Source: Candidatus Kapaibacterium sp.
Lineage (GTDB): Bacteria; Bacteroidota; Ignavibacteria; Kapaibacteriales; UBA2268
Assembly (NCBI GenBank): GCA_963665665.1
Contig: OY762428.1
Location: 5,248,001 to 5,312,000, forward strand
Direction of reading: 5' to 3'
Length of the DNA stretch: 64,000 nucleotides
Shown here piece by piece: positions 24,253 to 46,491 of this stretch. Position numbers and translations under genes: made by a program. Under the pieces are notes generated by a model, which worked only from the letters and a program-made list of their open reading frames with translations, searched no databases and was not told the origin of the DNA. Each line of letters begins with the position of its first letter. The first letter of the stretch is position 1.

Positions 24253-24879
24253 CTATAATTTCGGAAATACTTTCTTTTTTAATTCAGGAATACTTCCGCT
24301 TAAAAAAACTATTGAAAGCCATAAAACAATTACAACGAAAACAGTTGTTCCCATTTCTGTTTCGGTTATTAAAAGCCCGCTGAAAAGATTTATAACTGAT
24401 TGAACGCCTGAGGATAACTCAACAGTTTCAAATTTTCCCTGCTCGCCTGATAAGAAAAATATTATGAATTTAAAGAATATGAATAAATTTGCTAAAATGG
24501 CTCCAATTACTGCGTAATGTAATCTTTTCCTGAAGTTCAGCGGTGTGGCAAGAAAGAAAATGATTATAAGGAAGATTGGAATCAATACAAAAGTACGTAC
24601 ATTAGCCCGCTGGACTTTAGAGAGTATTCTGCCATCAGGGGCTACAAATTCAATGTTTCCAATTTTTATTTTTATCCTGAAGTATCCCTGATTTGGTAGT
24701 TTTTCAGTTTCATTTTCGATAATTCTTTTGTCTGAATCAGTAAGAATTCTGAAAACCGGTTGTGTCAGGCTTCCGTAAATATCGGCTGCAGGTTTGCTCA
24801 GAACAGGGGAGAGTATCTGGAAAATTATTATCCCTGCAAGAATTATTGCACTGAAAAGTGTTATCTGGCGAATGTTCAT
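24253..24879 (-). CDS. Exosortase-associated membrane protein (putative)
   Basis: Multi-TM with LATP motif; 4-nt overlap with the exosortase gene. Confidence 0.65.
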   Translation of the reverse strand: MNIRQITLFSAIILAGIIIFQILSPVLSKPAADIYGSLTQPVFRILTDSDKRIIENETEKLPNQGYFRIKIKIGNIEFVAPDGRILSKVQRANVRTFVLIPIFLIIIFFLATPLNFRKRLHYAVIGAILANLFIFFKFIIFFLSGEQGKFETVELSSGVQSVINLFSGLLITETEMGTTVFVVIVLWLSIVFLSGSIPELKKKVFPKL

Positions 24880-25436
24880 GCTGTTTTATCCAATTTGGAT
24901 TTATTAAAAGCCCAGTTAATCCATATCAGCCATGTTATCATAGCGAAAATTATAAATATTATCGGAAAAATTTCCGTGTGGAACTGTTCGAACATCGAAT
25001 GCCAGTGAATGCCGATATAATATAAAGCAACAATGCGTAATACATTTAAAACAATAAGAATTAACGATCCTGCAACAATTCCCTGCCACTTGAATTTCCA
25101 GGCAAGCGGAAAGGCAATCAATGCAGCGAGAAATAATACAAGTGGTTCGCTTCCTTCACAGCCGACACCAATGGTCAGCATGAAGCGGGGTGAGCTTAGC
25201 ATTATTCCGCTTTGCACCGCATCTTCACCAAACACATTCAATACTATGACAGAAAGCCAGGCGTTAAAAGAAGAGAATGATTCAAGAAATCCCTCGCTCA
25301 GACCGGTTTTTAACAAAATATAGTAAGTGGAAACTATGGCTACAAATCCTGCAAGGAATTTAATCAGGAGGATTTTACTTTTCTTTTTATCTTTTTTTTC
25401 AACTGCTTTTGAAAGTTTTGTTGTTTTCTTCGACAT
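24876..25436 (-). CDS. Exosortase/archaeosortase family transpeptidase (XrtH-like)
   Basis: GVGCEG (Cys), NVLRI (Arg), QFH (His) triad in a short multi-TM protein. Confidence 0.85.
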   Translation of the reverse strand: MSKKTTKLSKAVEKKDKKKSKILLIKFLAGFVAIVSTYYILLKTGLSEGFLESFSSFNAWLSVIVLNVFGEDAVQSGIMLSSPRFMLTIGVGCEGSEPLVLFLAALIAFPLAWKFKWQGIVAGSLILIVLNVLRIVALYYIGIHWHSMFEQFHTEIFPIIFIIFAMITWLIWINWAFNKSKLDKTA

Positions 25437-27593: not shown

Positions 27594-29153
27594 TTATAAT
27601 GGAATATTACCATGTTTTCTTGGCAGGTTCCTGTCCTTTTTCGTTGTCAGCATTTGCAATGCCCTGATGATCCTGAACCTTGTATTCCTAGGTTCGATAA
27701 CATCGTCGATGTAACCATATTTAGCGGCAACATAAGGATTCGCAAATTTTTCGCGATATTCCGCTTCTTTGACGGCAATAAATTTTAGTTTTTCTTCATC
27801 CTTATCAATTTTTTTCAAATCGCGTTGGTGAAGAACTTCAACTGCGCCTTTGGCTCCCATTACAGCTATTTCTGCATTTGGCCATGCGTAGTTGATATCG
27901 CCGCGAAGGTGCTTGGATGACATCACGTCATAAGCTCCGCCGTAAGCTTTTCTCAGGATGATTGTAATTTTCGGAACTGTAGCTTCGCCGAAAGCGTAAA
28001 GCAATTTAGCTCCGTGAATGATAATTCCGCCGTATTCCTGTGCTGTTCCGGGAAGGAAACCGGGAACGTCAACCAGTGTGATAACCGGTATATTGAAGGA
28101 GTCGCAGAAGCGAACAAATCGTGCACCTTTTCTTGAAGCATTTATATCAAGAACGCCTGCAAGATAGTTTGGCTGATTTGCAACAATACCTACCGGCTGT
28201 CCATTGAATTTTGCAAAACCTACAACCATATTCTGTGCATAATAACGCTGAACTTCTAAAAACTCACCATAATCTGCTATAGAGTGAATAACATCTTTAA
28301 CATTATAAGGTTTGTTAGGATTGTCGGGAATGATTTCATTCAGTGCGTCTTCAAGTCTTTCTATCGGGTCGTCGCACTGAGTTACAGGTGGTTCTTCCAT
28401 ATTGTTTTGGGGAATGTAGCTGAAAAGTTTCCTCAGAAGCATAATGCCTTCTTCTTCATTTTCAGCAACGAAATGATTAACACCTGATTTAGTGGCATGA
28501 ACCATCGGCCCGCCAAGTTCTTCGGTAGTAACGATCTCGTTCGTAACAGTTTTCACTACTTTGGGGCCGGTAACAAACATATAGCTTGTGTCTTTGGCCA
28601 TGATAATAAAGTCTGTAAGAGCAGGAGAGTAAACAGCTCCGCCGGCACATGGGCCGAAAATAGCAGAAAGCTGTGGAACAACACCTGATGCCATGATATT
28701 TCTCTGGAAGATATCAGCATAACCACCAAGTGAAACAACACCTTCCTGGATACGAGCTCCGCCACTGTCATTTATTCCGATAATCGGGGCACCCATTTTC
28801 ATTGCCTTATCCATTACTTTACAAATTTTCTGCGCGTACATTTCAGATAATGAACCGCCGAAAACAGTAAAGTCCTGCGAGAAAATATAAACAAGCCTGC
28901 CGTCAATAGTACCGTAACCTGTAACAACACCATCAGAAAGATATTGCTCATTTTCCAGCCCGAAATCGATACATCTGTGCGAAACAAACATATCAAATTC
29001 TTCGAAACTACCATCATCAAGGAGCATATCGATACGTTCCCTGGCCGTGAACTTCCCTTTCTTGTGCTGCGATTCAATTCTTCTTTCACCGCCGCCTAGA
29101 CGCGCTTTCTCGCGCATATCCATTAAGTCTTTAATTCTTTCTTCAATGGCCAT
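27594..29153 (-). CDS. Acyl-CoA carboxyltransferase (methylmalonyl-CoA decarboxylase alpha / PccB-like)
   Basis: [53 protein letters not shown]. Operon context favours the MmdA role. Confidence 0.93.
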
Positions 29154-29619
29154 TTTAAACCCTTTTTCGGAAATGATTATATATAAATCGTTTGTTTATT
29201 TTCAATTTCAATAACTCTGTATAAAAATCCATGCATATAATATAAATTACATGCCATAAAAGGAGAATTGCTATAAATATCTATAACATATAAAGATAAG
29301 GTTTTCATGTAACTTTCAATATTTGCATTATTGAGAATTTCTTTTTCAAAATCGAAAATCATTAAAAGTTTTTTTTAAAAGCTTCTGATCATCAGATTCA
29401 ATAGCTGCAAATTAAATAATATTGCCGAAAATTAAAAATCAATTATCTCTATAAATTATTGATAATTAAATGATTAAATATTCATACCAAAATTTTTGTA
29501 TTCCATCTGTTGCATCAATTTGAAATAAGTAAAAAAATCAAATTATAGCGGAATTTTGCTACAAAAAAAAAATTGTTATAGTTTTGCGAAAATATTTGAT
29601 AATAAAATTGAGAACACTA

Positions 29620-30447
29620 ATGAAACATTTTTGGATAATTGCTGTTTTTGCAATCATGGTTGTAAGTTGCGGGAGTGAAAAAAATGATAACAAAATTGAA
29701 AAATCAGATGACACCAATGATAATTCAAAAAATGAGATGCCAGCGACAGCCGAAAAAATGCAACCTGACCTTGCGAAGAAAACCGATTTGAGTAGTGATG
29801 ACCAAACTGAAGAGATTATTAATCAGCATTTTAAAGCAAGGGGACAGGATAGACTCTCTGAAGTGAAAATTCTGGGAACAAAAGGTTCTTTCACACAAGG
29901 GCAATATAAGAGTGATTTTTTCTCGTTTATTTCCAGACCCGGAAAGTATTATTTTGAAGGCACTTTCGGAGATAAAAAATTCGTGCAGGTATTTGACGGT
30001 GAGCACGGCTGGGCAATAAAGCCATGGATTCCTGATTCGGTTACTGCTATTGGTGGTATGCAGCTTGCTGCTATGAAGGAGCAGGCAAATATGGACGGAC
30101 AGCTTCACAACTGGAAATCAAAATATCTGGCTGTTAATTATATAGGAGAAGGAAACGTAAGGGGCAAACCTGCGTATATCCTGAATGTAAAAAGAACTGA
30201 TGGCAACGAGGTTAAATATTTCATAGGCAAAACAAGCTTTCTTGTATTAAAAACGGAATCTACCGCAAATTATAACGGACAAAATGTGACGACAGAATCC
30301 TTTATGCTTGATCATAAGAAAATTGACGGGATATTCTTTCCATTCAGATATGAAACTGTTGCCAATGGAAGTATAATAAGCGAGATAAATGTAAAAGAAA
30401 TTACTATCGATCCTGAAATTGATAAGTCAATATTCAAGAAACCATAA
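29620..30447 (+). CDS. Lipoprotein, LolA-like/outer-membrane sorting-protein-like fold (putative)
   Basis: Lipobox VVSC; FDGEHGW, DHKKIDGIFFPF, IDKSIFKKP. Confidence 0.75.
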   Translation: MKHFWIIAVFAIMVVSCGSEKNDNKIEKSDDTNDNSKNEMPATAEKMQPDLAKKTDLSSDDQTEEIINQHFKARGQDRLSEVKILGTKGSFTQGQYKSDFFSFISRPGKYYFEGTFGDKKFVQVFDGEHGWAIKPWIPDSVTAIGGMQLAAMKEQANMDGQLHNWKSKYLAVNYIGEGNVRGKPAYILNVKRTDGNEVKYFIGKTSFLVLKTESTANYNGQNVTTESFMLDHKKIDGIFFPFRYETVANGSIISEINVKEITIDPEIDKSIFKKP

Positions 30448-30471
30448 AACTTCAAAATATTTAAAAATATT

Positions 30472-30508
30472 AAATTTATCCGATGACTGAATAGCATCGG
30501 ATAAATTT
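30472..30508. repeat. ATCCGATGACT...CATCGGAT palindrome between convergent genes (second copy at 43424-43460)
   Basis: AAATTTATCCGATG...CATCGGATAAATTT; the related TTACTCATCCGATGACTTCAAGTCATCGGATGAGTAA follows the 42148 gene. Confidence 0.7.
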
Positions 30509-30585
30509 GCTTGGATTGTAAACAGAACAATAATTGAAATTTACATTAGTGCCAACTTCTGTTTGTCAATTCGTATATTTCCGGT

Positions 30586-31140
30586 TTACTTCCATTTAAT
30601 ATTACATCCAATTGATGGTATTTGAACATCCGGTATGGGCTGTCCGTCATTTACAGAATCAAGAACAGCACGAATATCTTTACCTGTAACAGGAATAGTA
30701 TTTCCCGGACGCGAACTATCAAGCTGGCCACGGTAAATTAGTTCCATTGCATTATTGTAAATAAAAAAATCCGGAGTGCAGGCTGCACCGTATGCCATAG
30801 CTATTGCCTGTGATTCATCATACAGATAGGGGAAAGGATAGCCCAGGTTTTCGGCATATTCCTTCATTTTTTCGAATGAATCTTCAGGATAATTTTCTGC
30901 ATCGTTTGAACTGATTGCAATGAAGCTGAAACCTTTTTGGATATATTCTTCGGCAAGTTTTACAAGCTGTTCATTTACATGTTTTACAAACGGACAGTGG
31001 TTGCAGATAAACATTATTACGGTTGCTTTTTCAGACCTCATTTCTTCAAGTGAAATATTTTTTCCACTTATTGGATCAGGAAGTGAAAAGTCACGGGCCT
31101 TGCTGCCAATATCTATCATTTTTGAAGCTGTTTCTGCCAT
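30586..31140 (-). CDS. Thioredoxin-like/AhpC-TSA family protein
   Basis: FICNHCPFV, YPFPYLYDE, AACTPDFF, YRGQLD, SIGCNIKWK. Confidence 0.92.
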   Translation of the reverse strand: MAETASKMIDIGSKARDFSLPDPISGKNISLEEMRSEKATVIMFICNHCPFVKHVNEQLVKLAEEYIQKGFSFIAISSNDAENYPEDSFEKMKEYAENLGYPFPYLYDESQAIAMAYGAACTPDFFIYNNAMELIYRGQLDSSRPGNTIPVTGKDIRAVLDSVNDGQPIPDVQIPSIGCNIKWK

Positions 31141-31437
31141 AATTAGTAAAAAATTAATTCAACAAAATATAAATTTCTTATCCGGAATAACGAAAAGAGG
31201 CAAATAAGATTTTGGGTTGGCTAAAAATTATCCTTATTCTATTGTTGTAATTTTATAATCAAAAAAATTTAAATTATTATTCTGTAATAAAATATCATAT
31301 TTATTAATGGAATATTAAAATAACATTAATAATTAAAAATATATATTCCATAAGCAATTGTCATATAGTTAGATACTAAAATATTTCGTATATTGAAATA
31401 ATATTTTATTATATACAATAACCTATGGGAGGTTAAT

Positions 31438-31650
31438 TTGGAAAACGAGAAGAAAATGAAGTACGAAGTTCCGGAAGTTATTGGCTTTGAATGGATGAAC
31501 TCGATAGGAACTTGTTTTTCGAATGGTTCTGCTGATACTGGAAGATGTAGCGGAAATGGATTAACAGCGAATTATACTTGTGCCGGCAATGGTAATACGG
31601 CATTAACCCAATGTCAGGCTCAGGGAAGCGGTTTTACCGGAGGAACTTGA
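31438..31650 (+). CDS. Cys-periodic peptide 1, candidate RiPP precursor (70 aa)
   Basis: GGGAGG RBS at 31427-31432, TTG start; leader MENEKKMKYEVPEVIGFEWM; core with 4 Cys at Cx10C spacing. Confidence 0.8.
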   Translation: MENEKKMKYEVPEVIGFEWMNSIGTCFSNGSADTGRCSGNGLTANYTCAGNGNTALTQCQAQGSGFTGGT

Positions 31651-31716
31651 TTCTTAATATTTGTGATACTATTTTATTTGCTTCGACAAAAAATAGATCA
31701 ATTTTGCGAGAATAAA

Positions 31717-31959
31717 ATGGAAAATGAGAAGAAAATGAAATATGAAGTTCCTGAAGTGATTGGTTTTGAATGGATGCAGTCAATTGGTACTTGTTCGTCC
31801 GGATCTGCTGATGGTTACAATTGCAGTGCTGACGGTAATTCAGCCGGTTCATCTTGCAGCGGTCATGGTATGGTTCCTGACGGAGGATGCAATCTGGCCG
31901 GATTAGGTGATACTGCTGCAGGTTGTTCAATAGGATTTGACGCAGCAACATTTAATTAA
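31717..31959 (+). CDS. Cys-periodic peptide 2, candidate RiPP precursor (80 aa)
   Basis: ATG 31717; identical 20-aa leader with synonymous nucleotide differences; core with 5 Cys (x9, x10, x10, x11). Confidence 0.8.
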   Translation: MENEKKMKYEVPEVIGFEWMQSIGTCSSGSADGYNCSADGNSAGSSCSGHGMVPDGGCNLAGLGDTAAGCSIGFDAATFN

Positions 31960-32027
31960 TTCCATTTCTATTCAACCCCATTTTTAGCTATTTTTGCAAT
32001 AGTTTATAAATTATTGCAGGAATAGAA

Positions 32028-33479
32028 ATGAAATATTTACTACTTTTAATTTTCCCGACTATACTTATCGCATCACAACCCGAATTTAATAATTATTTCA
32101 ATGACCAGACAATGAGGATAGATTATTTTCATTTTGGCCATGCAAATAGTGATAATGTATCAATCGATAAAATTTATCAATACGACAAATGGGCAGGGAA
32201 TCCGAATAAACTGATTGACAATTTCAACAATGGCGCTTATTATATAAAGATTTATGACTATCAAAGCGGACAGTTGATATATTCCTATGGCTTTGATTCT
32301 TACTTCAAGGAATACAAAACCACGCGAGCAGGTATTGAAGGAAAAACAAAAGTTTATAGTGAAACAGCCAGAATTCCATTTCCAAAATCCAAGATATATT
32401 TATCGGTTGAAATGAGATTAAGAGACCTTTCCCTGAAAGAAGTTTTCAGAACTGTAATTGATCCGAACGATGTTTCCATCATTTTTATGAAAAAACAAAA
32501 AGTAAACCTGCTGATTGATGAAACTCATATTAGCGGGAACTGTCATGATAAACTGGATATTCTGATAGTGGGCGAGGGCTATTCAAAAGAAGAAACCGAA
32601 AAATTCAAAAAGGATATGCAGCGTTTCAAAGATGTATTATTCAAATACCAACCTTATGCTGATTACAAAGATAAAATTAACCTGAGAGGAATTGTTGAAC
32701 CTATGGATGAAAGTGGTGTTGACGAGCCAAGAGCCGGAATTTTTAAAAACAGCTCGCTTTCCTGTACTTTCAATTCTCTCGGTTCCGAACGCTACCTGCT
32801 TACCGAGGACAATAAATCATTACAGGATATTGCTTATAATCTTCCATTTGATGCCCTTTATATTATGGTGAATAGTGAGCGATACGGTGGCGGCGGAATT
32901 TATAATTTCTATTGCACATTTACAGCTGATAACCAGTGGTTCGAATATCTTTTTACACATGAATTCGGCCATTCTTTTGGCGGCCTGGCTGATGAATATT
33001 TTACTTCCAGTACAGCTTACGAAGAGTTTTATCCCAAAGGCATTGAACCTGTTGAACCGAATATTACCGCACATCCCGAAGATTTGAAATGGAATGAATT
33101 TATCAGCAAAGGAATTGAGATACCGACTCCCTGGAATAAAAAGGCATTCATTGATCAGGGAATTGTTTGGGGTAAGAAACGAATGGAAATGAATGATAAT
33201 ATTGCCAGGCTAAAGAAAATTGCTGCTCCTGAGAAAGATATAAAAGAAGCCGAGAAAGAGTATGTTAAACTTGACAGAAAAAATTCCGAAGAAGTTGATG
33301 CATTGATCAGGGATAATAAATATTATGGTAAAGTCGGAGCATTCGAAGGGGCCGGTTATGTTGCCGAAGGGCTTTATCGCCCTATGATAGACTGTATAAT
33401 GTTTTCCAAAGGCAGCAAACCATTCTGCAAAGTATGTGAAAATGCAATTATTAAAAGAATTCTTCATTATGTGAATTAA
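32028..33479 (+). CDS. Peptidase M64 (IgA peptidase family) metallopeptidase, exported
   Basis: MRIDYFH N-terminal domain, YGGGGIYN, HEFGHSFGGLADEY, GAFEGAGY, CIM...PFCKVC. Confidence 0.92.
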   Translation: MKYLLLLIFPTILIASQPEFNNYFNDQTMRIDYFHFGHANSDNVSIDKIYQYDKWAGNPNKLIDNFNNGAYYIKIYDYQSGQLIYSYGFDSYFKEYKTTRAGIEGKTKVYSETARIPFPKSKIYLSVEMRLRDLSLKEVFRTVIDPNDVSIIFMKKQKVNLLIDETHISGNCHDKLDILIVGEGYSKEETEKFKKDMQRFKDVLFKYQPYADYKDKINLRGIVEPMDESGVDEPRAGIFKNSSLSCTFNSLGSERYLLTEDNKSLQDIAYNLPFDALYIMVNSERYGGGGIYNFYCTFTADNQWFEYLFTHEFGHSFGGLADEYFTSSTAYEEFYPKGIEPVEPNITAHPEDLKWNEFISKGIEIPTPWNKKAFIDQGIVWGKKRMEMNDNIARLKKIAAPEKDIKEAEKEYVKLDRKNSEEVDALIRDNKYYGKVGAFEGAGYVAEGLYRPMIDCIMFSKGSKPFCKVCENAIIKRILHYVN

Positions 33480-33701
33480 TAAATATTCCTGACCTTAAAA
33501 AGTAATCTATTTATTACCGGTATTGATATCCGGAAAAAGAGTCTAGATTTTTTAAATGAAATAGTCAATTATGATAAATCATTAAACAATGCTTTGAGGT
33601 ATGCTGTTTCTTGATTATATTGAATATTGTTGTTTCGGGAATACAGCAGGTGATAGCAATTACTGTTGTAAAAAAGGTAAACTTATTATTGAGAATTGAA
33701 G

Positions 33702-34571
33702 ATGAGAAAAATTTTATTTGTATTGGCATTCCTTATTTCGGTTCCGTTAATAGCAGACGATTTGGAAAATCTGCTTGACGGGGAACTTGATAAAGAAATT
33801 ATTTACGAGAGCGCTACATTCAAATCAACAAGAGTGGTAAACTGTCATTCAATTGAACGTGTTCGGGGAGGAGAACTTGATTTCAGGGTAGCACACAGGT
33901 TTGGCAGATTAAATTCCGGATTTGATGATTTCTTCGGATTTGATGATGCAAGTACTTATATCAGCCTTGAAACTGGCATAACCGATTGGATGATGGTTGG
34001 CCTGGGGCATGCCACAGTTAGAAAATTCAATAACGGCTTTTTGAAACTCAGCTTACTTCGCCAGGCAAAAGAAAATGCTTTCATACCCGTTTCCGTGTCT
34101 GCTTTCACGAGCATAGCACACACTTCTGTCGAATATCCTGATAGTGACCCCCGGGATGAATTTGATTCCAGGCTTGAATATGCTTTTCAGTTATTGATTG
34201 CGAGGAAATTCACATCTGATCTGTCTGTACAACTATCCCCGACTATTGTTCACAGGAATATTGTAATGGGGGAGAATGATAATAATCTTTACTCCATTGG
34301 GCTTAGTGGCAGGTATAAATTATCAAACTGGGTATCGGTCAATATTGAGTATTTCCCTGTCTTGAATAAGGATGATATGAGCGGGGCCGAATTTTTCGAT
34401 CCTATTGCTATTGGATTTGATATTGAAACCGGCGGGCATGTGTTCCAATTGTATGTTACCAATGGGATTAGCATTATTGAAAGCGGCTATATTGGCAGGA
34501 CGAGCGGAAACCTGATTGATGGTGACATACACATTGGTTTCAATATTTCAAGAATGTTTAATTTATTTTAA
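33702..34571 (+). CDS. DUF5777-like outer-membrane beta-barrel protein
   Basis: ATFKSTRVVN, HRFG, DIETGGHVFQL, GFNISR, terminal F. Confidence 0.85.
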   Translation: MRKILFVLAFLISVPLIADDLENLLDGELDKEIIYESATFKSTRVVNCHSIERVRGGELDFRVAHRFGRLNSGFDDFFGFDDASTYISLETGITDWMMVGLGHATVRKFNNGFLKLSLLRQAKENAFIPVSVSAFTSIAHTSVEYPDSDPRDEFDSRLEYAFQLLIARKFTSDLSVQLSPTIVHRNIVMGENDNNLYSIGLSGRYKLSNWVSVNIEYFPVLNKDDMSGAEFFDPIAIGFDIETGGHVFQLYVTNGISIIESGYIGRTSGNLIDGDIHIGFNISRMFNLF

Positions 34572-38394: not shown

Positions 38395-40149
38395 TCATTT
38401 ACTCATCTGAAGTATAACAAGCTTGGCATAGATACCATTTTTCTCAATAAGTTCCTTGTGAGTGCCACTTTCCCGTATTTCCCCATGGTGAAGGACTATT
38501 ATCCTGTCGGCTTTTTTAACTGTGCTCAGCCTGTGAGCAATTACTATTGAAGTTCTGCCGCTGAATAATTTATGTAGTGAATTTTCGATGATATGTTCCG
38601 TCCCCGAATCAATTCCCGAACTTGCCTCATCCAGGATCAGTATTTCAGGATCTGCGGCAAAAGCCCTGCAAATAGCTATGAGCTGCTTTTGTCCGGTTGA
38701 CAAATTTGCTCCGAAATCTCCCGGATCGTATGCGAACCGGCCCGGCAGTTTGGATATAAAACCATAAGCCCCAACTGATTTTGCAGCTTCAATTAGTTTT
38801 TTATCATCGGGTTTGGACCCCGGGATAATATTTTCCGCCAGGCTGCCCCTGAAAATGATATTTTCCTGCATAACAAGGGCGGTTAATTTTCTAAAGGCAA
38901 TTGGATTTACTTCCCTGATATCAACTCCGTCAATGAAAATGTTACCAGAAAATCCATCGTAGAATCTGAGCAACAGGTTTACAATGGTTGTTTTTCCCGA
39001 TCCTGTTGCTCCAACAATAGCTACGGTCTCCCCTTTTTTTACTTCAAAATTTATATCTCTCAATACCTGTTTTTTTCCGTCATAAGAAAATGCTAAGTTT
39101 TTGAAATGAATGCTTTGCTTGAAACTATTTTTATTGTTTCCCAAATTGTTTTCAATACTGTCCTCATCAAGGAAGGAAAATATTTTCTCGGATGATGCCA
39201 TTGCAGCCTGTAAAGTTGTATATTTCTCGGAAAGATCACGCACCGGACGAAAGAACATCTCGATATACTGCATGAATGCAATTACAACCCCGGCGCTTAG
39301 CGAATGGGATATAACCGACCCGGCAGAATACCATAACGCCAATCCAAGCGCAAAACCACTTATTAACTCTATTGCCGGAAAGAACATCGAGAAATATTTA
39401 ACTCCTTTCAGATTCAGAGATAATGCACTGAAGTTCAGGAAATTGAAATCATCTTTACTCTTGTTTTCAGCATTGAATTGCTTCACAACATGAATACCGC
39501 TGAAAGTTTCGTTCAGGAAAGAATTCATTTCTGAAATTTTAATCCTGACCAATCGATAGATCTCGCGAATTTTTTTCCTGAAAAAGAAACTGACCGCAAG
39601 CAAAACCGGTAGTACTGACAATGTAATTAATGCCAGCCCCGCATCGGTATAAAACATGAATGCAACAATCCAGACAATATAAGCTATATCAGCGATAATC
39701 AGGACAATTCCTGATGTAAAGAGTTTGTTCATTGCCTCGACGTCGTTTGTAACGCGCGTTACCGGGCTTCCGACTGGATGCTTGTCAAACCAGGATATCA
39801 ATAGTGTGTGAATTTTGTCAAAAAGGGCTTTTCTGATATCAAAAAGGACTTTCTGCCCGGTTCTGTTCATAACATAAGTCTGAAAATATTTCAATATGCC
39901 CCGCACTACCAATACAATAGTAATCAATATTGCAATTTTCAGTACTCCGTTATAATCACCGTCGGGAATGTATTCATCAATGGCAATTTTGCTTAGGTAT
40001 GGTGTAAGTGGCGCAATGCCGGAACCTAAAATGGCAAGAACAAAAGCCGAGATAGCTGCTAATTTATATGGTTTCATAAATGCCAGCAACCTTTTCACGA
40101 GTTTCCACTCCGGCTTTTTATATTCAACCGTAAAACTAACGTTCCTCAT
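38395..40149 (-). CDS. ABC exporter, fused permease/ATPase (MdlB-like)
   Basis: Six-TM domain, GATGSGKT Walker A, LSTGQKQ, ILDE, AHRLST. Confidence 0.93.
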   Translation of the reverse strand: MRNVSFTVEYKKPEWKLVKRLLAFMKPYKLAAISAFVLAILGSGIAPLTPYLSKIAIDEYIPDGDYNGVLKIAILITIVLVVRGILKYFQTYVMNRTGQKVLFDIRKALFDKIHTLLISWFDKHPVGSPVTRVTNDVEAMNKLFTSGIVLIIADIAYIVWIVAFMFYTDAGLALITLSVLPVLLAVSFFFRKKIREIYRLVRIKISEMNSFLNETFSGIHVVKQFNAENKSKDDFNFLNFSALSLNLKGVKYFSMFFPAIELISGFALGLALWYSAGSVISHSLSAGVVIAFMQYIEMFFRPVRDLSEKYTTLQAAMASSEKIFSFLDEDSIENNLGNNKNSFKQSIHFKNLAFSYDGKKQVLRDINFEVKKGETVAIVGATGSGKTTIVNLLLRFYDGFSGNIFIDGVDIREVNPIAFRKLTALVMQENIIFRGSLAENIIPGSKPDDKKLIEAAKSVGAYGFISKLPGRFAYDPGDFGANLSTGQKQLIAICRAFAADPEILILDEASSGIDSGTEHIIENSLHKLFSGRTSIVIAHRLSTVKKADRIIVLHHGEIRESGTHKELIEKNGIYAKLVILQMSK

Positions 40150-42147: not shown

Positions 42148-43416
42148 ATGAAATACCGTCTTACAAGTCTCATGATTTTTTTAATCCTCCCGCTTTTTAT
42201 TTCATGTGGAAATAAAAATGATACAGAAGGAATGTCCGGTACAATTGGCAAAGTGGAAAAACATCATGAAAATGATAATGCAGGTATTGTTTTAAGAAGT
42301 GAGTTTTTCAATAATAAGGAAGAAGTCCAGAAAACAATAGCTCTTCTCGCTGCATTTAATTATAAAATGGGTAAAGTTCTTCTTGATATCGAAGATTGGT
42401 GGATACCCCGGATCATGAAATACGACAACACACCTCAGGGTCAGGAATTAGCTAATTCTTTGAAAGACTATATGAAGTTTGTAAAGAATAATAAATATAA
42501 AACCAACAAAACCATATCCTTGCTACTTGATATCAATTCCGGAAAAATGGATTACTCCAAAGATATTGATCATTATTTTATTGAGTTTTTCAATTATATC
42601 GAACAATTGATCAAAAAAAATGAGCTATTTATAAATTCCACCAACTCGATGGAAAAAATTATTGCATCCGGCGAAGCAGGCAAAAAAGCTGATATGCTTA
42701 ATAATATCCGCGAAGTCAGAGATAAAATGATAATAAAAACAGCTTCTATTGCACTGCTTACCGGCGATTCGAAAACCGCGAAATATGCCCTTGAAAAAGA
42801 GATTCATGATCCTGGTTTGTTGAAAGATATTCCTGCAAAAGAAAAAATCCACCAGGGAGATGCCCGGGCAGTTTTCGAGGACTTTTATGTGGATGAAGAT
42901 AAGATTCTGACATATTATTCGAAAACTGATGATCATGGTTTTTATAGTGGAAATGTTGGATTGGCTGTTTATGCTAATCCCGGAATAGATACGGGAAACC
43001 CCAATCCTATTGAAGTGATTAAATTATTTCAATCCGATATTATTCCCGGAATCGATAACATGAAACAGGTTGCTTTATCAGAGTATAAACTTGAATTTTT
43101 CGCCCGGGAAGAAGTTAAAGTTATCTTATCCCAGGATAAATTGAGTGCCGTATATGCCTTTGATAAACTGAGCACAGATTATTCAGAGTTGCTCTGTTCG
43201 ATTATGGACAAAGAAAAACTGGATTTAATTGATCTTACAGCAAAAGACGAATTGTCCTCAGCAAATAAGAAACTTGGAGTTTATATTTTTGCTTCTGATA
43301 AAATTGGAGATACTGATGATATAATCAAACTTACTCCGGCTATAGAACGAATCGGAGTATATAGCATCCTGGAGTTATTTGGCAATAAAAACGAAGATTT
43401 AGATTTGCAGGAATAA
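42148..43416 (+). CDS. Hypothetical lipoprotein
   Basis: GGAG RBS, lipobox FISC, long ORF, no recognised domain. Confidence 0.75.
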   Translation: MKYRLTSLMIFLILPLFISCGNKNDTEGMSGTIGKVEKHHENDNAGIVLRSEFFNNKEEVQKTIALLAAFNYKMGKVLLDIEDWWIPRIMKYDNTPQGQELANSLKDYMKFVKNNKYKTNKTISLLLDINSGKMDYSKDIDHYFIEFFNYIEQLIKKNELFINSTNSMEKIIASGEAGKKADMLNNIREVRDKMIIKTASIALLTGDSKTAKYALEKEIHDPGLLKDIPAKEKIHQGDARAVFEDFYVDEDKILTYYSKTDDHGFYSGNVGLAVYANPGIDTGNPNPIEVIKLFQSDIIPGIDNMKQVALSEYKLEFFAREEVKVILSQDKLSAVYAFDKLSTDYSELLCSIMDKEKLDLIDLTAKDELSSANKKLGVYIFASDKIGDTDDIIKLTPAIERIGVYSILELFGNKNEDLDLQE

Positions 43417-43530
43417 ATGGCAATTACTCATCCGATGACTTCAAGTCATCGGATGAGTAAATAAAAAGCCCCGTTAATATCTACCCCGGAAATCAATGGA
43501 AGAATGATGTACAAAGAGTTACGGACGGAA

Positions 43531-46491
43531 ATGAAGAAGATAATTTTTACAGTGATATTTATCATTACTACAATTCAATTACACTCGCAGGTAATGGAAT
43601 ATTCCTACGAGGACCTGGATCTATTTTATTTCGATCCAAGGCATTCTTACCTGATTCCACATGCTGCCGGTACATTTGTAAATGCAATGGAATTCCACAA
43701 GAAATTCTGGGATTACACTCCAAGCGAAGACGTGCAGATACTACTGAATGATTTTTCCGATGACGGTAACGGAGGTACTATCGTGATTCCGTGGAATTTT
43801 ATATCACTTGGGATTGCTCCCTTCGAATATACATTCGATGTTATTCCGTCCAATGAACGTATGCAGTGGCTTATGAACCATGAGCTTGTCCATGTGGTAA
43901 TGTGCGACAAAGCTTCCCCGGGGGATAACTTCTGGCGTTCCATTTTCCTCGGAAAAGTCGGACAGGATCCGAACGATCCTTTATCAATGGTATACAGCTA
44001 TCTTACAACTCCCCGCTGGTATTCCCCGCGCTGGTATCACGAAGGCATAGCTGTTTTCATGGAAACATGGATGTCCGGCGGCCTTGGCCGTACTCTTGGT
44101 GGTTATGACGAAATGGTATTTCGTTCGATGTATCTTGATTCCGCGTATTTCTACAGGGTTGTGGGCCTTGAAACAGAGGGAACAACAATTGATTTCCAGG
44201 TGGGAGTAAATGCATATCTTTATGGAACACGTTTTATTGCATGGCTGGCAAAAACTTATGGAGTAGAGAAAGTTCGTGCCTTTTATTCAAGAACTGATGA
44301 TTCTGATAAATTCTATGCTTCCCAGTTCGAAAAAGTTTTTAATATCGACGTAGAAGATGCATGGGAAAATTGGATAGCATGGGAGAAAGAACATCAAAAG
44401 TCCAATATCGAAAAAGTAAATAAATATCCTGTAACTGATTTCCGAAATATTACTTTCGAACCACTCGGCACGGTTTCACGACCTTTTATTGATTCTGAGA
44501 CAGGGAAGATCATTGTTGCTGTGAACTATCCCGGAGATATGGCACATGTGGAAAGCATTGATATTGAAACAGGCCAAAGAGAAAGAATTTGCGAAATAAT
44601 CACCCCTAAACTCAACTATGTTACCAGCTTGTGCTATGATGAAGTATCGAAAACCGTTTTTATGGCCGAAACCAACAATAATTGGAGGGGGCTGAGTAAA
44701 TATAATATTAAAACAGATGAAAAAGAATACCTGATTGAAACCACACGTGCGGGAGATTTCGCACTTAACAATAAAGACAGATCCCTGTGGGCAGTACAGA
44801 ATATGAGCGGCAGGACTTCACTAATACGTATTCCGCCGCCGTATAATACATTCGATATTATTTTTACTATTCCCTACGGGAAGTCGCTTTTTGATATTGA
44901 TGTCTCCCCTGACGGTGAAATGCTAAGCGCCACATGGTCCGAACTCAGCGGAAGGCAATCACTTGTTTGCTTTAATATCAGGGAACTGATAAACGGCAAT
45001 AGCGATAAAAGAACACTTTTTGAATTCGAGGATAATTCCGTATCAAATTTTGTTTTCTCCCCCGACGGAACAAAACTTTACGGAACTTCATATTATACCG
45101 GAATTTCAAATATTTTTGAAATTGATGTTGAAACAGGCGAAATGCAAGCCCTGTCCAACGCGGAGGCCGGACTTTTCCGCCCTACTCCTGTTGGAAATGA
45201 TTCCCTGCTCGTGTTCAAATACACACGCAACGGTATGCTGCCTGTGATGACAGGGATAAACCCGATAGAAGATATTGAACCAATTGATTACTTAGGGCAG
45301 ATGGTAGTTGAAAAAAATCCGATTGTAAAAGAATGGGCTTTGGAGCCTGCTGCAAAAGCCGTTATGCTTGATACAAATATTGCCAGCGAAGAGCCTTTCA
45401 GCCTTTTCACCGGTATTGGCCTTGCCTCGGGCTACCCGATTGTTGAAGGATATAAAAAATATGCCGCATTCGGATATAAAATAAATTTCAGGGATCCCCT
45501 TGGAATGCACAACCTGCAATTAAAATCTTCATATACAGCAAACAGCAATCTGCCGGAAAAAGAAAGGCTTCATGCCGGAATTTCCTATAACTACTGGGAC
45601 TGGTATATAAACGCCGCGTACAACCCGGCGGATTTCTATGATCTTTTCGGGCCTGTAAAACTGGGCCGTGCCGGATGGTTCGCCTCGGTGAAATACCACA
45701 AGGACCTGATATACAATCACAAGCCACACCATTCGGATTTTTACCTTCGCCTTAGCGCTTATGGCGACCTGGAAAAAATGCCTTCATACCAGAACGTTAA
45801 TGCCTCCTTTGATAAACTTTATACAGCGACAGCTCAATTCCACAGGAACTTCTTCCGTAAAAGCCTTGGATCGATAGAACCTGAATCCGGCTATGATATT
45901 AAGATATGGTCGCATACAAATCTTGCCAACGAGGAATTCTATCCTCTGCTGTTTGGGCAGTTTGATTTTGGAGGCCTCCTCCCTATGCGCAATTCTTCAA
46001 TCTGGCTTCGTACAGCAGCCGGACATTCATTAAAAGATGACGGAAGCCCATTCGGAAATTTTTATTTCGGCGGATTCGGCAATAATTATATAGATCGTTT
46101 CAATCCACAGGATATGAAAAATTCAGACTACCTTGCCGTGAAAAAATACAGGATGCTTGAATCCTTCCCCGGGCGTGACCTGAATGAACTGGAAGGACGC
46201 AATTTTGTTAAAAGTTTTGCCGAAGTGAACTTTACACCAATTCGTTTCCGCAGGCTGGGATTCCTGTATATGTACAGCACTTATGCTCAGTTTTCATGCT
46301 TTGCCGGCGGTATAATTCTTAACCCGGATAAAGATTACCGCCGCCAGGTTTATAATATCGGTGGACAACTTGATTTCCAGGTGGTATTCTTCTCATTGTT
46401 GAAAACCACACTTTCATTTGGCTATGCCCGCTCCTTCGAGAATGGACTCCGCCCCGACGAAGAATTTATGATTTCATTGAAATTGCTTTAA
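43531..46491 (+). CDS. Outer-membrane protein: gluzincin-like domain, TolB-like propeller and C-terminal beta-barrel
   Basis: HELVH...WYHEG, SPDG repeats, alternating aromatic beta-strands at the C-terminus. Confidence 0.75.
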   Translation: MKKIIFTVIFIITTIQLHSQVMEYSYEDLDLFYFDPRHSYLIPHAAGTFVNAMEFHKKFWDYTPSEDVQILLNDFSDDGNGGTIVIPWNFISLGIAPFEYTFDVIPSNERMQWLMNHELVHVVMCDKASPGDNFWRSIFLGKVGQDPNDPLSMVYSYLTTPRWYSPRWYHEGIAVFMETWMSGGLGRTLGGYDEMVFRSMYLDSAYFYRVVGLETEGTTIDFQVGVNAYLYGTRFIAWLAKTYGVEKVRAFYSRTDDSDKFYASQFEKVFNIDVEDAWENWIAWEKEHQKSNIEKVNKYPVTDFRNITFEPLGTVSRPFIDSETGKIIVAVNYPGDMAHVESIDIETGQRERICEIITPKLNYVTSLCYDEVSKTVFMAETNNNWRGLSKYNIKTDEKEYLIETTRAGDFALNNKDRSLWAVQNMSGRTSLIRIPPPYNTFDIIFTIPYGKSLFDIDVSPDGEMLSATWSELSGRQSLVCFNIRELINGNSDKRTLFEFEDNSVSNFVFSPDGTKLYGTSYYTGISNIFEIDVETGEMQALSNAEAGLFRPTPVGNDSLLVFKYTRNGMLPVMTGINPIEDIEPIDYLGQMVVEKNPIVKEWALEPAAKAVMLDTNIASEEPFSLFTGIGLASGYPIVEGYKKYAAFGYKINFRDPLGMHNLQLKSSYTANSNLPEKERLHAGISYNYWDWYINAAYNPADFYDLFGPVKLGRAGWFASVKYHKDLIYNHKPHHSDFYLRLSAYGDLEKMPSYQNVNASFDKLYTATAQFHRNFFRKSLGSIEPESGYDIKIWSHTNLANEEFYPLLFGQFDFGGLLPMRNSSIWLRTAAGHSLKDDGSPFGNFYFGGFGNNYIDRFNPQDMKNSDYLAVKKYRMLESFPGRDLNELEGRNFVKSFAEVNFTPIRFRRLGFLYMYSTYAQFSCFAGGIILNPDKDYRRQVYNIGGQLDFQVVFFSLLKTTLSFGYARSFENGLRPDEEFMISLKLL

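Follow-up and report, generated by a model that had tools for sequence, protein, structure and literature searches.

The 64,000-nucleotide stretch of the Candidatus Kapaibacterium sp. genome analysed here (contig OY762428.1, positions 5,248,001 to 5,312,000; "the window") encodes two short tandem peptides, A and B, with identical leaders and cysteine-periodic cores. The window holds none of the 26 Radical_SAM, 5 SPASM and 4 PqqD matches of the genome. A first-pass annotation, made from the sequence alone, had described them as an orphan pair of candidate precursors of RiPPs (peptides made on ribosomes and modified after translation), reminiscent of those of SynChlorMet (SCM) cassettes, with no radical SAM, PqqD or dedicated transporter gene nearby. 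The genome-wide counts agree with this for the radical SAM and PqqD genes and, as no maturase is encoded in the window, any maturation must occur in trans, as was also stated there. The best explanation overall is that A and B are ScmA-type RiPP precursors, probably matured in trans by a distant SCM cassette of the same chromosome (cassette 1).

Two tandem genes with an identical leader

The genes and their parts are located as follows (window coordinates):

31426..31516, + strand: tandem duplication unit, copy 1, 91 nt; copy 2 is 31705-31795, with 82% identity
31427..31432, + strand: Shine-Dalgarno-like GGGAGG, 5 nt 5′ of the TTG of A, read from the sequence
31438..31650, + strand: precursor peptide A gene, TTG start, 70 amino acids plus stop, from the list of open reading frames (ORFs)
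31438..31512, + strand: leader of A, residues 1-25, with Y9-x-x-P12-E-V and F17-x-W19-M20, from invariant columns and selection
31513..31647, + strand: core of A, four ~11-residue modules, each with Cys first and Gly at +4
31717..31959, + strand: precursor peptide B gene, ATG start, 80 amino acids plus stop, from the ORF list
31717..31791, + strand: leader of B, residues 1-25, from the six-peptide alignment and the codon comparison
31792..31956, + strand: core of B, with Gly at +3 or +4 in its five Cys modules

The boundary between leader and core is set by convention at the first cysteine, and is thus a predicted position and not a mapped cleavage site.

Residues 1-20 are identical in the two peptides (MENEKKMKYEVPEVIGFEWM, with the TTG taken as Met). 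A codon-by-codon comparison of codons 2-20 gives six synonymous differences on ~8.3 synonymous sites (a proportion, pS, of 0.72) and zero non-synonymous differences on ~48.7 sites. The first-pass annotation had recognized the identity and five of the synonymous pairs (AAC/AAT, TAC/TAT, CCG/CCT, GTT/GTG and GGC/GGT), all of which are confirmed, and had missed a sixth, AAG/AAA at Lys8. When the comparison is extended to codon 26, there are nine synonymous differences and two further nucleotide changes, both in one codon (N21/Q21). Because the synonymous sites are near saturation, as in an old duplication, and yet the leader protein is unchanged, we conclude that the leader is under purifying selection, as had been proposed, and discount a recent gene conversion.

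Both peptides contain the (N/Q)SIGTC junction noted previously, after which the cores have diverged with strict retention of the Cys-Gly register. The core of A contains four cysteines (spacings 11, 11 and 11) and that of B five (spacings 10, 11, 11 and 12), with a module consensus of C-x-x-(N/D)-G-x-x-A-x-x-x. The earlier description of a cysteine every 10-12 residues, with a glycine 3-4 residues later, is exact: glycine is found at +3 or +4 after 9/9 core cysteines, compared to a mean of 3.9/9 when the non-Cys core residues are permuted, and nine is reached in 1 of 2000 such shuffles. The N-termini are hydrophilic and, as read from the translations, without a signal peptide.

The start codons of A and B differ (TTG and ATG, respectively), and the site equivalent to GGGAGG ahead of B is weaker (GCGAGA). 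The duplication unit starts 12 nt 5′ of each start codon, and ~45 nt upstream of each start there is one copy of an extra 18-nt repeat (31393-31410 and 31661-31678, 83% identity). Peptide A is listed as a called protein in the protein collection (P0001). The ORF of B is nested in one that begins earlier, at a GTG (31663-31959). Codon 7 of both genes is an in-frame ATG and may be an alternative start for either; some metagenome relatives are called as starting at MKY, and the four paralogues described below start with ME or MD eight residues ahead of the conserved tyrosine, matching the longer form.

Paralogous precursors and two SynChlorMet cassettes

A search of the genome with peptide B recovered four peptides encoded in cassette 1 (E 9.2e-9 to 5.7e-6) and one weaker orphan match at ~4.95 Mb (E 2.8e-4). 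Together with about 15 more distant peptides and relatives in metagenomes, these paralogues remove the pair from the "orphan" class to which it had been assigned. In an alignment of the pair with the four cassette-1 peptides, Y9, P12, E13, F17, W19, M20, G24, C26 and later cysteine columns are invariant.

Cassette 1 (locus L017; contig positions 1,439,720-1,448,413) is one of two ScmC/D/E/F cassettes in the genome and lies 3.83 Mb from the pair, or ~1.6 Mb if the chromosome is circular. By NCBIfam models, its ScmE1 (491.9 bits, cut-off 400) and ScmF1 (461.4 bits, cut-off 400) are above the cut-offs, and ScmD1 (87.4 bits, cut-off 100), for which ScmD is the best match, and ScmC1 (117.7 bits, cut-off 125) are below. 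An S26 signal-peptidase-like protein of the cassette matches TIGR02228 with 50.6 bits (cut-off 51.85). The four precursors, at 1,444,255-1,446,779, have leaders of the type Y-x-x-P-E-[VI]-[VI]-x-F-x-W-M, as in the pair. Further products of cassette 1 are an HPr-kinase-like protein, a Sulfotransfer_1 protein (89 bits) and a radical SAM enzyme, the third of the cassette, which is not of the SPASM type. None of these extra proteins was detected by phmmer (E<=1e-5) in seven SCM loci of the same phylum, the one exception being a marginal match between the HPr-kinase-like protein and the ScmC of locus L035.

The Sulfotransfer_1 gene (L017:9308-10168) is directly upstream of the first cassette-1 precursor. 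In metagenome contigs, the strict leader pattern was found at one locus, of 1070 bases (L042); there, at positions 1-597, a homologue of the sulfotransferase is encoded ahead of a class-1 leader peptide, the core of which is in another reading frame. The recurrence of this adjacency hints at sulfation as an extra modification.

In cassette 2, which is likewise a complete SynChlorMet cassette (L018, 3052000-3064000; genes at ~3.056-3.063 Mb), three precursors are interleaved with scmD, scmE, scmF, an ABC exporter gene, scmC and a gene for an S26-like peptidase. ScmE2 (546.6 bits) and ScmC2 (227 bits, above the cut-off) were identified directly, ScmD2 has ScmD as its best match (85.8 bits, below 100), and the identity of ScmF2 rests on its comparison with ScmF1 (458.9 bits by phmmer). 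The leaders of the cassette-2 precursors are more generic (K-Y-x-K/R-P-x-L/I). The first-pass annotation had called for a scan of the genome for such maturases and had named the lack of one containing a RiPP recognition element (RRE) as grounds for rejection; these ScmE and ScmF proteins and two PqqD-type ScmD proteins were found, so that these grounds do not apply. The one other SPASM protein of the genome is of the TIGR04133 type, and its other PqqD proteins are either part of a lasso-peptide cluster or free-standing, which leaves the two cassettes as the sole maturase candidates of this genome. The TIGR04133 radical SAM/SPASM protein is paired with a TIGR04134 lipoprotein (L010, 1634-4816), and the lasso-peptide set (L013, 2304460-2307657), consisting of an asparagine-synthase-like cyclase, a B2 protease and a PqqD-type B1 chaperone, adjoins a Fic adenylyltransferase.

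A genome-wide scan for the core signature returned 26 segments, five of which (starting at 1417015, 2037788, 2251415, 2289574 and 4824886) were dropped by eye because they lacked a leader and were in a basic or low-complexity frame. The ~21 ScmA-like ORFs comprise four in cassette 1, three in cassette 2 and 14 elsewhere, at eight loci. Besides the pair, the twelve ORFs outside the cassettes are located at 1483128-1491326 (L128, six ORFs), 1862381, 2398887, 3327268, 3824545, 4952718 (L019; without an ATG start) and 5344159. Leucine replaces the proline of the leader motif in four of these twelve. The six-gene island at 1.483-1.491 Mb lies amid genes for PFOR, NuoE/F-like proteins, rubrerythrin and ferritin. 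Among the remote loci, the leader class of cassette 1 occurs in the window pair alone.

These distributions bear on which cassette would act on the pair. The peptides could be real precursors matured by cassette 2, or by both cassettes: the KYEVPEV half of their leader fits the K-Y-x-K/E-P-x-L motif of the cassette-2 peptides and of most SCM loci, they lack the C10, D16 and K18 of the cassette-1 leaders, cassette 2 has an ABC exporter and cassette 1 none, and the ~12 further orphans with generic leaders already imply that maturation in trans is common in this genome. However, the F-x-W-M half of the leader and the sequence of the first module are common only to the pair and the cassette-1 peptides, and none of the three cassette-2 peptides was recovered with peptide B at E<=10. 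We thus consider a role of cassette 2 improbable, and maturation by cassette 1 specifically, as suggested by these sequence comparisons, reasonably likely.

Relation to the ScmA family

The SCM proteins are described by curated models for ScmA (TIGR04252) and for ScmC, ScmD, ScmE and ScmF (TIGR04249, TIGR04248, TIGR04250 and TIGR04251, respectively). We use "ScmA-like" for an architecture of our own working definition, not a curated one: a leader with an aromatic-x-x-P-x-hydrophobic motif, and at least three cysteines spaced 8-18 residues apart with glycine at +3/+4. Peptides A and B both have this architecture. An hhalign comparison of a profile of the six window-class peptides with one of ten cassette-linked, ScmA-like peptides gave a probability of 95.7%, which may be inflated by composition bias (E 9.8e-9, 62 columns). 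Glycine is at +3/+4 after 75/75 core cysteines of 16 cassette-linked or paralogous peptides, compared to a shuffled mean of 28.4, and 75 was reached in 0/2000 shuffles.

The association of such peptides with ScmE extends beyond this genome. Six of seven other ScmE loci of the same phylum have, inside the cassette, a small ORF that combines a [WY]xxPx[LIVM] leader with a Cys-periodic core. One peptide of this kind, in L035, is an ScmA member by the TIGR04252 model (87.1 bits). Among 80 loci from named records, retrieved with a ScmE alignment, such ORFs lie beside the ScmE homologue in 24/52 stronger loci (L048-L099), versus 3/28 weaker radical SAM loci; the ORF filter was strict and many of the contigs are short. 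The stronger loci include Chlorobiaceae, Syntrophobacterales, Desulfomonilaceae, Nitrospirae, Aminicenantes, Lentisphaerota, Methanogenium and Methanospirillum.

A word-indexed protein search recovered only the peptides of this genome; when 1.84 billion representative proteins were scanned in full with HMMER, 121 relatives were obtained at E<=1e-3, 19 of them at E<=1e-10. Ten relatives were looked up, and all ten are unnamed or "hypothetical protein". The F-x-W leader extension occurs in 20 of the 121 small matches, 15 of these 20 being from outside this genome, and several metagenome relatives share residues that distinguish the pair from its cassette paralogues (E at position 10, and DFEWM; RFEWI, which is also window-like, is found as well). 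Across 527 core cysteines, the profile is G 42% and N 22% at +3, G 62% at +4, and A 41% at +7. A library protein of 1402 residues (P0006) has 22 separate stretches that match the 68-position peptide profile and, judging from these matches, may be a giant protein built of Cys-Gly modules like those of the pair.

Two other readings can be assessed against this background. The peptides could be unmodified and Cys-rich, binding metal or forming disulfides, and unrelated to radical SAM enzymes. Regular cysteine spacing could suit metal binding, a gene for a thioredoxin-fold AhpC/TSA protein is adjacent, and other orphans lie amid ferritin, rubrerythrin and PFOR genes; the lack of a signal peptide, the homology to cassette-encoded peptides and a Cys-Gly module signature that follows ScmE loci across phyla make this very unlikely. 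That the ORFs arose by chance and are not translated is scarcely credible: they are short, lie in AT-rich DNA and have no curated family match, and a scan of 31100-32100 was uninformative (7 promoter-like sites versus 6.1 expected from shuffles, and 0 terminators), so that promoter and terminator signals do not exceed background, but the selection pattern, the paralogues and the 121 library relatives all speak for genes. We regard it as likely that A and B are real precursor genes of an SCM-type system.

Proposed maturation and points against it

In the proposed pathway, the leader (Y9-x-x-P12-x-V plus F-x-W-M) would be bound by the PqqD-type RRE protein ScmD. The core would in this way be handed on to ScmE and ScmF, both of them radical SAM/SPASM enzymes, which would modify each Cys module, most likely with one Cys-derived thioether crosslink per module, and the leader would then be removed by the S26 signal-peptidase-like protein of the cassette. 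The scheme presupposes that the two genes are expressed and that the product is exported.

A PqqD domain in the genome scores 48.4 bits (cut-off 23.4), and the ScmD profile matches the solved structures of TfuB1, TbiB1 and PqqD, as expected of an RRE-like protein. Leader-RRE co-folding had been suggested in the first-pass annotation. A co-fold of ScmD1 and the first 36 residues of peptide A scored 0.40, against 0.04 for the highest of three controls, with at least 86% of contacts in common between runs and a partner pLDDT of at least 54. The mark that this result passes is reached by 58/80 solved complexes and 2/110 mismatched pairs; at scores of 0.60 or less, it is reached by 7/80 solved complexes and by both of the passing mismatches.

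The thioether assignment draws on analogy: the cysteines are invariant, ScmE1 is closest among solved proteins to SkfB, which forms thioethers (E 7e-21), and ranthipeptides and sactipeptides provide precedents. CteB (5wgg) also matches ScmE1. Against the PapB-family model NF047865 (cut-off 340), ScmE1 scores 91.7 bits and ScmF1 57.7 bits, which places neither in that family. Thioether chemistry on the pair is possible, although somewhat doubtful.

Several observations weigh against the proposed assignment. The co-fold is weak support for binding of the leader by ScmD1: since complexes of RREs with leader peptides have already been solved, the pass may reflect likeness to these instead of binding. 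The leader of the pair departs from the four cassette-1 leaders at three positions where these do not vary (it has E for C10, G for D16 and E for K/R18), so recognition by ScmD1 is not assured. Cassette 1 does not have an exporter of its own, and we know of no modified product of any SCM cassette. At the family level, peptides A and B have no match at E<=10, TIGR04252 included (cut-off 35 bits); the best TIGR04252 match in the genome is a cassette-1 peptide with 15.4 bits, and the pair is not listed. As a positive control, a small ORF between scmF and scmD of L035, from a genome of the same phylum, scores 87.1 bits with the same model. Given the lack of a TIGR04252 match, the pair does not formally belong to ScmA, and it also lies outside the setting that defines ScmA, within or beside a ScmC/D/E/F cassette. 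The likeness to SynChlorMet-type precursors drawn in the first-pass annotation is therefore borne out by the two cassettes and the four paralogues in cassette 1, but not by the curated model. The leader search proposed there found paralogues in the genome and relatives in metagenomes, but the peptide profile has matches in 0/40 relatives of the organism, and the strict leader pattern is absent from the genome contig records searched; conservation across species is therefore seen in unnamed metagenome proteins alone. Finally, peptide A depends on a TTG start, the public sequencing runs listed include no RNA run, and a C>A change at 31781 gives TAA at codon 22 of B in a low-depth contig of another sample (X4, depth 3.7). 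Unless it reflects an error in sequencing, this stop would be a sign of B being dispensable; the two other differences of that contig are at 31425, upstream, and at 31482, where the change is synonymous.

Part of this evidence would also fit a history of decay, in which a precursor gene left cassette 1 and was duplicated in tandem, and recognition or expression was then lost. The three altered leader positions, the TTG start, the codon-22 stop in the X4 contig (if it is not an error), the lack of an RNA run among those listed and the lack of a homologous locus among the 40 relatives are all compatible with such decay. However, the leaders differ at 6 of ~8.3 synonymous sites with zero amino-acid change over 19 codons, both reading frames are open, the glycine register is intact at 9/9 core cysteines and a strong GGGAGG precedes the start of A. 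Moreover, metagenome relatives bear the same "changed" leader residues. We therefore consider decay unlikely, and prefer the reading of the pair as ScmA-type precursors matured in trans by cassette 1. Taken as a whole, the interpretation given in the first-pass annotation is supported in every part that could be tested.

An extension of this reading, which we offer tentatively, is a combinatorial, prochlorosin-like system in which two cassettes with distinct leader classes mature ~21 dispersed precursors, each with a core that is a ladder of 11-residue Cys-Gly modules, the pair being the sole remote substrate of the sulfotransferase-bearing cassette 1. If true, the products would be a new class of multi-ring, possibly sulfated, peptides.

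Genes and DNA around the pair

The pair has ordinary genes as neighbours, among them:

30586-31140, divergent orientation: AhpC/TSA thioredoxin-fold protein
32028-33479, + strand: secreted peptidase M64, 69 nt downstream of peptide B

DUF5777 and YceI proteins are also encoded nearby, and an operon upstream encodes the Carboxyl_trans, OAD_gamma, biotinyl and OAD_beta subunits of a decarboxylase. Homologues of the M64 peptidase were found in 2/25 family relatives, where the genes upstream of them are unrelated and no peptide ORFs are present. The sole ABC exporter near the pair (38395-40149, - strand) was considered as a dedicated transporter and rejected, as its highest scores are with MsbA models and its identity to the exporter of cassette 2 is 31%; the statement that no dedicated transporter lies nearby thus holds. 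No Rfam match was obtained for 29000-34000 (E<=0.1), and a search for a regulatory motif common to the window locus and the cassette intergenic regions found only AT-rich 9-11-mers.

Elsewhere in the window, a short exosortase (EpsH)-like membrane protein (24876-25436, - strand, 31.5 bits) adjoins a 208-residue ORF (24253-24879, - strand) with no family match. Two ORFs of 422 residues (42148-43416, + strand) and 995 residues (43504-46491, + strand) have no Pfam match at E<=0.001.

Comparison with known systems

Like ScmA (TIGR04252), the pair has a leader that is short and hydrophilic and carries an aromatic-x-x-P-x-hydrophobic motif. In its core, Cys modules follow each other at ~10-12 residues, with glycine at +3/+4, and its paralogues have their genes next to those of ScmD, ScmE and ScmF. 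It differs from ScmA in the additional F-x-W-M segment of the leader and in its distance of megabases from any cassette, and its presumed cassette adds the sulfotransferase, HPr-kinase-like and third radical SAM genes.

Multi-Cys cores and radical SAM/SPASM enzymes are likewise found in ranthipeptide and sactipeptide systems (PapA/PapB of freyrasin, SCIFF/CteB and SkfA/SkfB), where one enzyme has a fused RRE; here, two maturases would act with a separate RRE protein, and the crosslink is predicted. PapA carries Cys-X3-Asp motifs, which the frequent Asn/Asp at +3 after cysteine resembles. A separate PqqD-fold protein beside SPASM radical SAM partners recalls PqqA-PqqD-PqqE and the lasso B1 proteins (TbiB1 and TfuB1), and the leader motifs of lasso peptides and PqqA resemble Y-x-x-P-x-L/V. 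In contrast to these systems, the products and core peptides are different, and leader binding is suggested here by a weakly supported co-fold.

Prochlorosins, in which one enzyme, ProcM, serves many scattered ProcA genes, are similar in having conserved leaders, hypervariable cores and, for most precursors, a location far from the maturase (14 of the ~21 ORFs here are outside the cassettes). The chemistry there is that of a lanthionine synthetase, compared to radical SAM chemistry here, and the present genome has two cassettes and two leader classes. In CrpA/CrpC of Methanococcus voltae, a SPASM radical SAM enzyme modifies a Cys-rich substrate, for which ranthionine crosslinks are reported (PMC13692751). 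The system differs from ours in having a larger protein substrate, a predicted RRE within CrpC and no SCM cassette (PMC13692751).

Implications

The SynChlorMet cassette is already known as a set of curated model families, and the pair is a divergent addition to this experimentally uncharacterised kind of system. In the open literature searched, with supplements and non-open papers outside its scope, no paper naming the cassette or its product was found; the main texts of PMC10288494 and PMC10114670 do not mention Scm, Chlorob- or Syntroph-, although their supplements might list SCM clusters. As TIGR04252 misses all ~21 ScmA-like ORFs of this genome, our results show that the curated ScmA model is too narrow.

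Under the tentative combinatorial reading, the role of the peptides may be physiological and not antibiotic, given the many orphan precursors amid redox and iron genes (AhpC/TSA, ferritin, rubrerythrin and PFOR). With two cassettes, two leader classes and ~21 natural substrates, including the remote pair, the genome is a compact test system for this family. The three changes in the leader of the pair, at positions that are candidates for recognition, make leader/RRE specificity directly testable, and the same genome lends itself to tests of what the two paired SPASM enzymes do and of the chemistry at the 11-residue Cys-Gly module.

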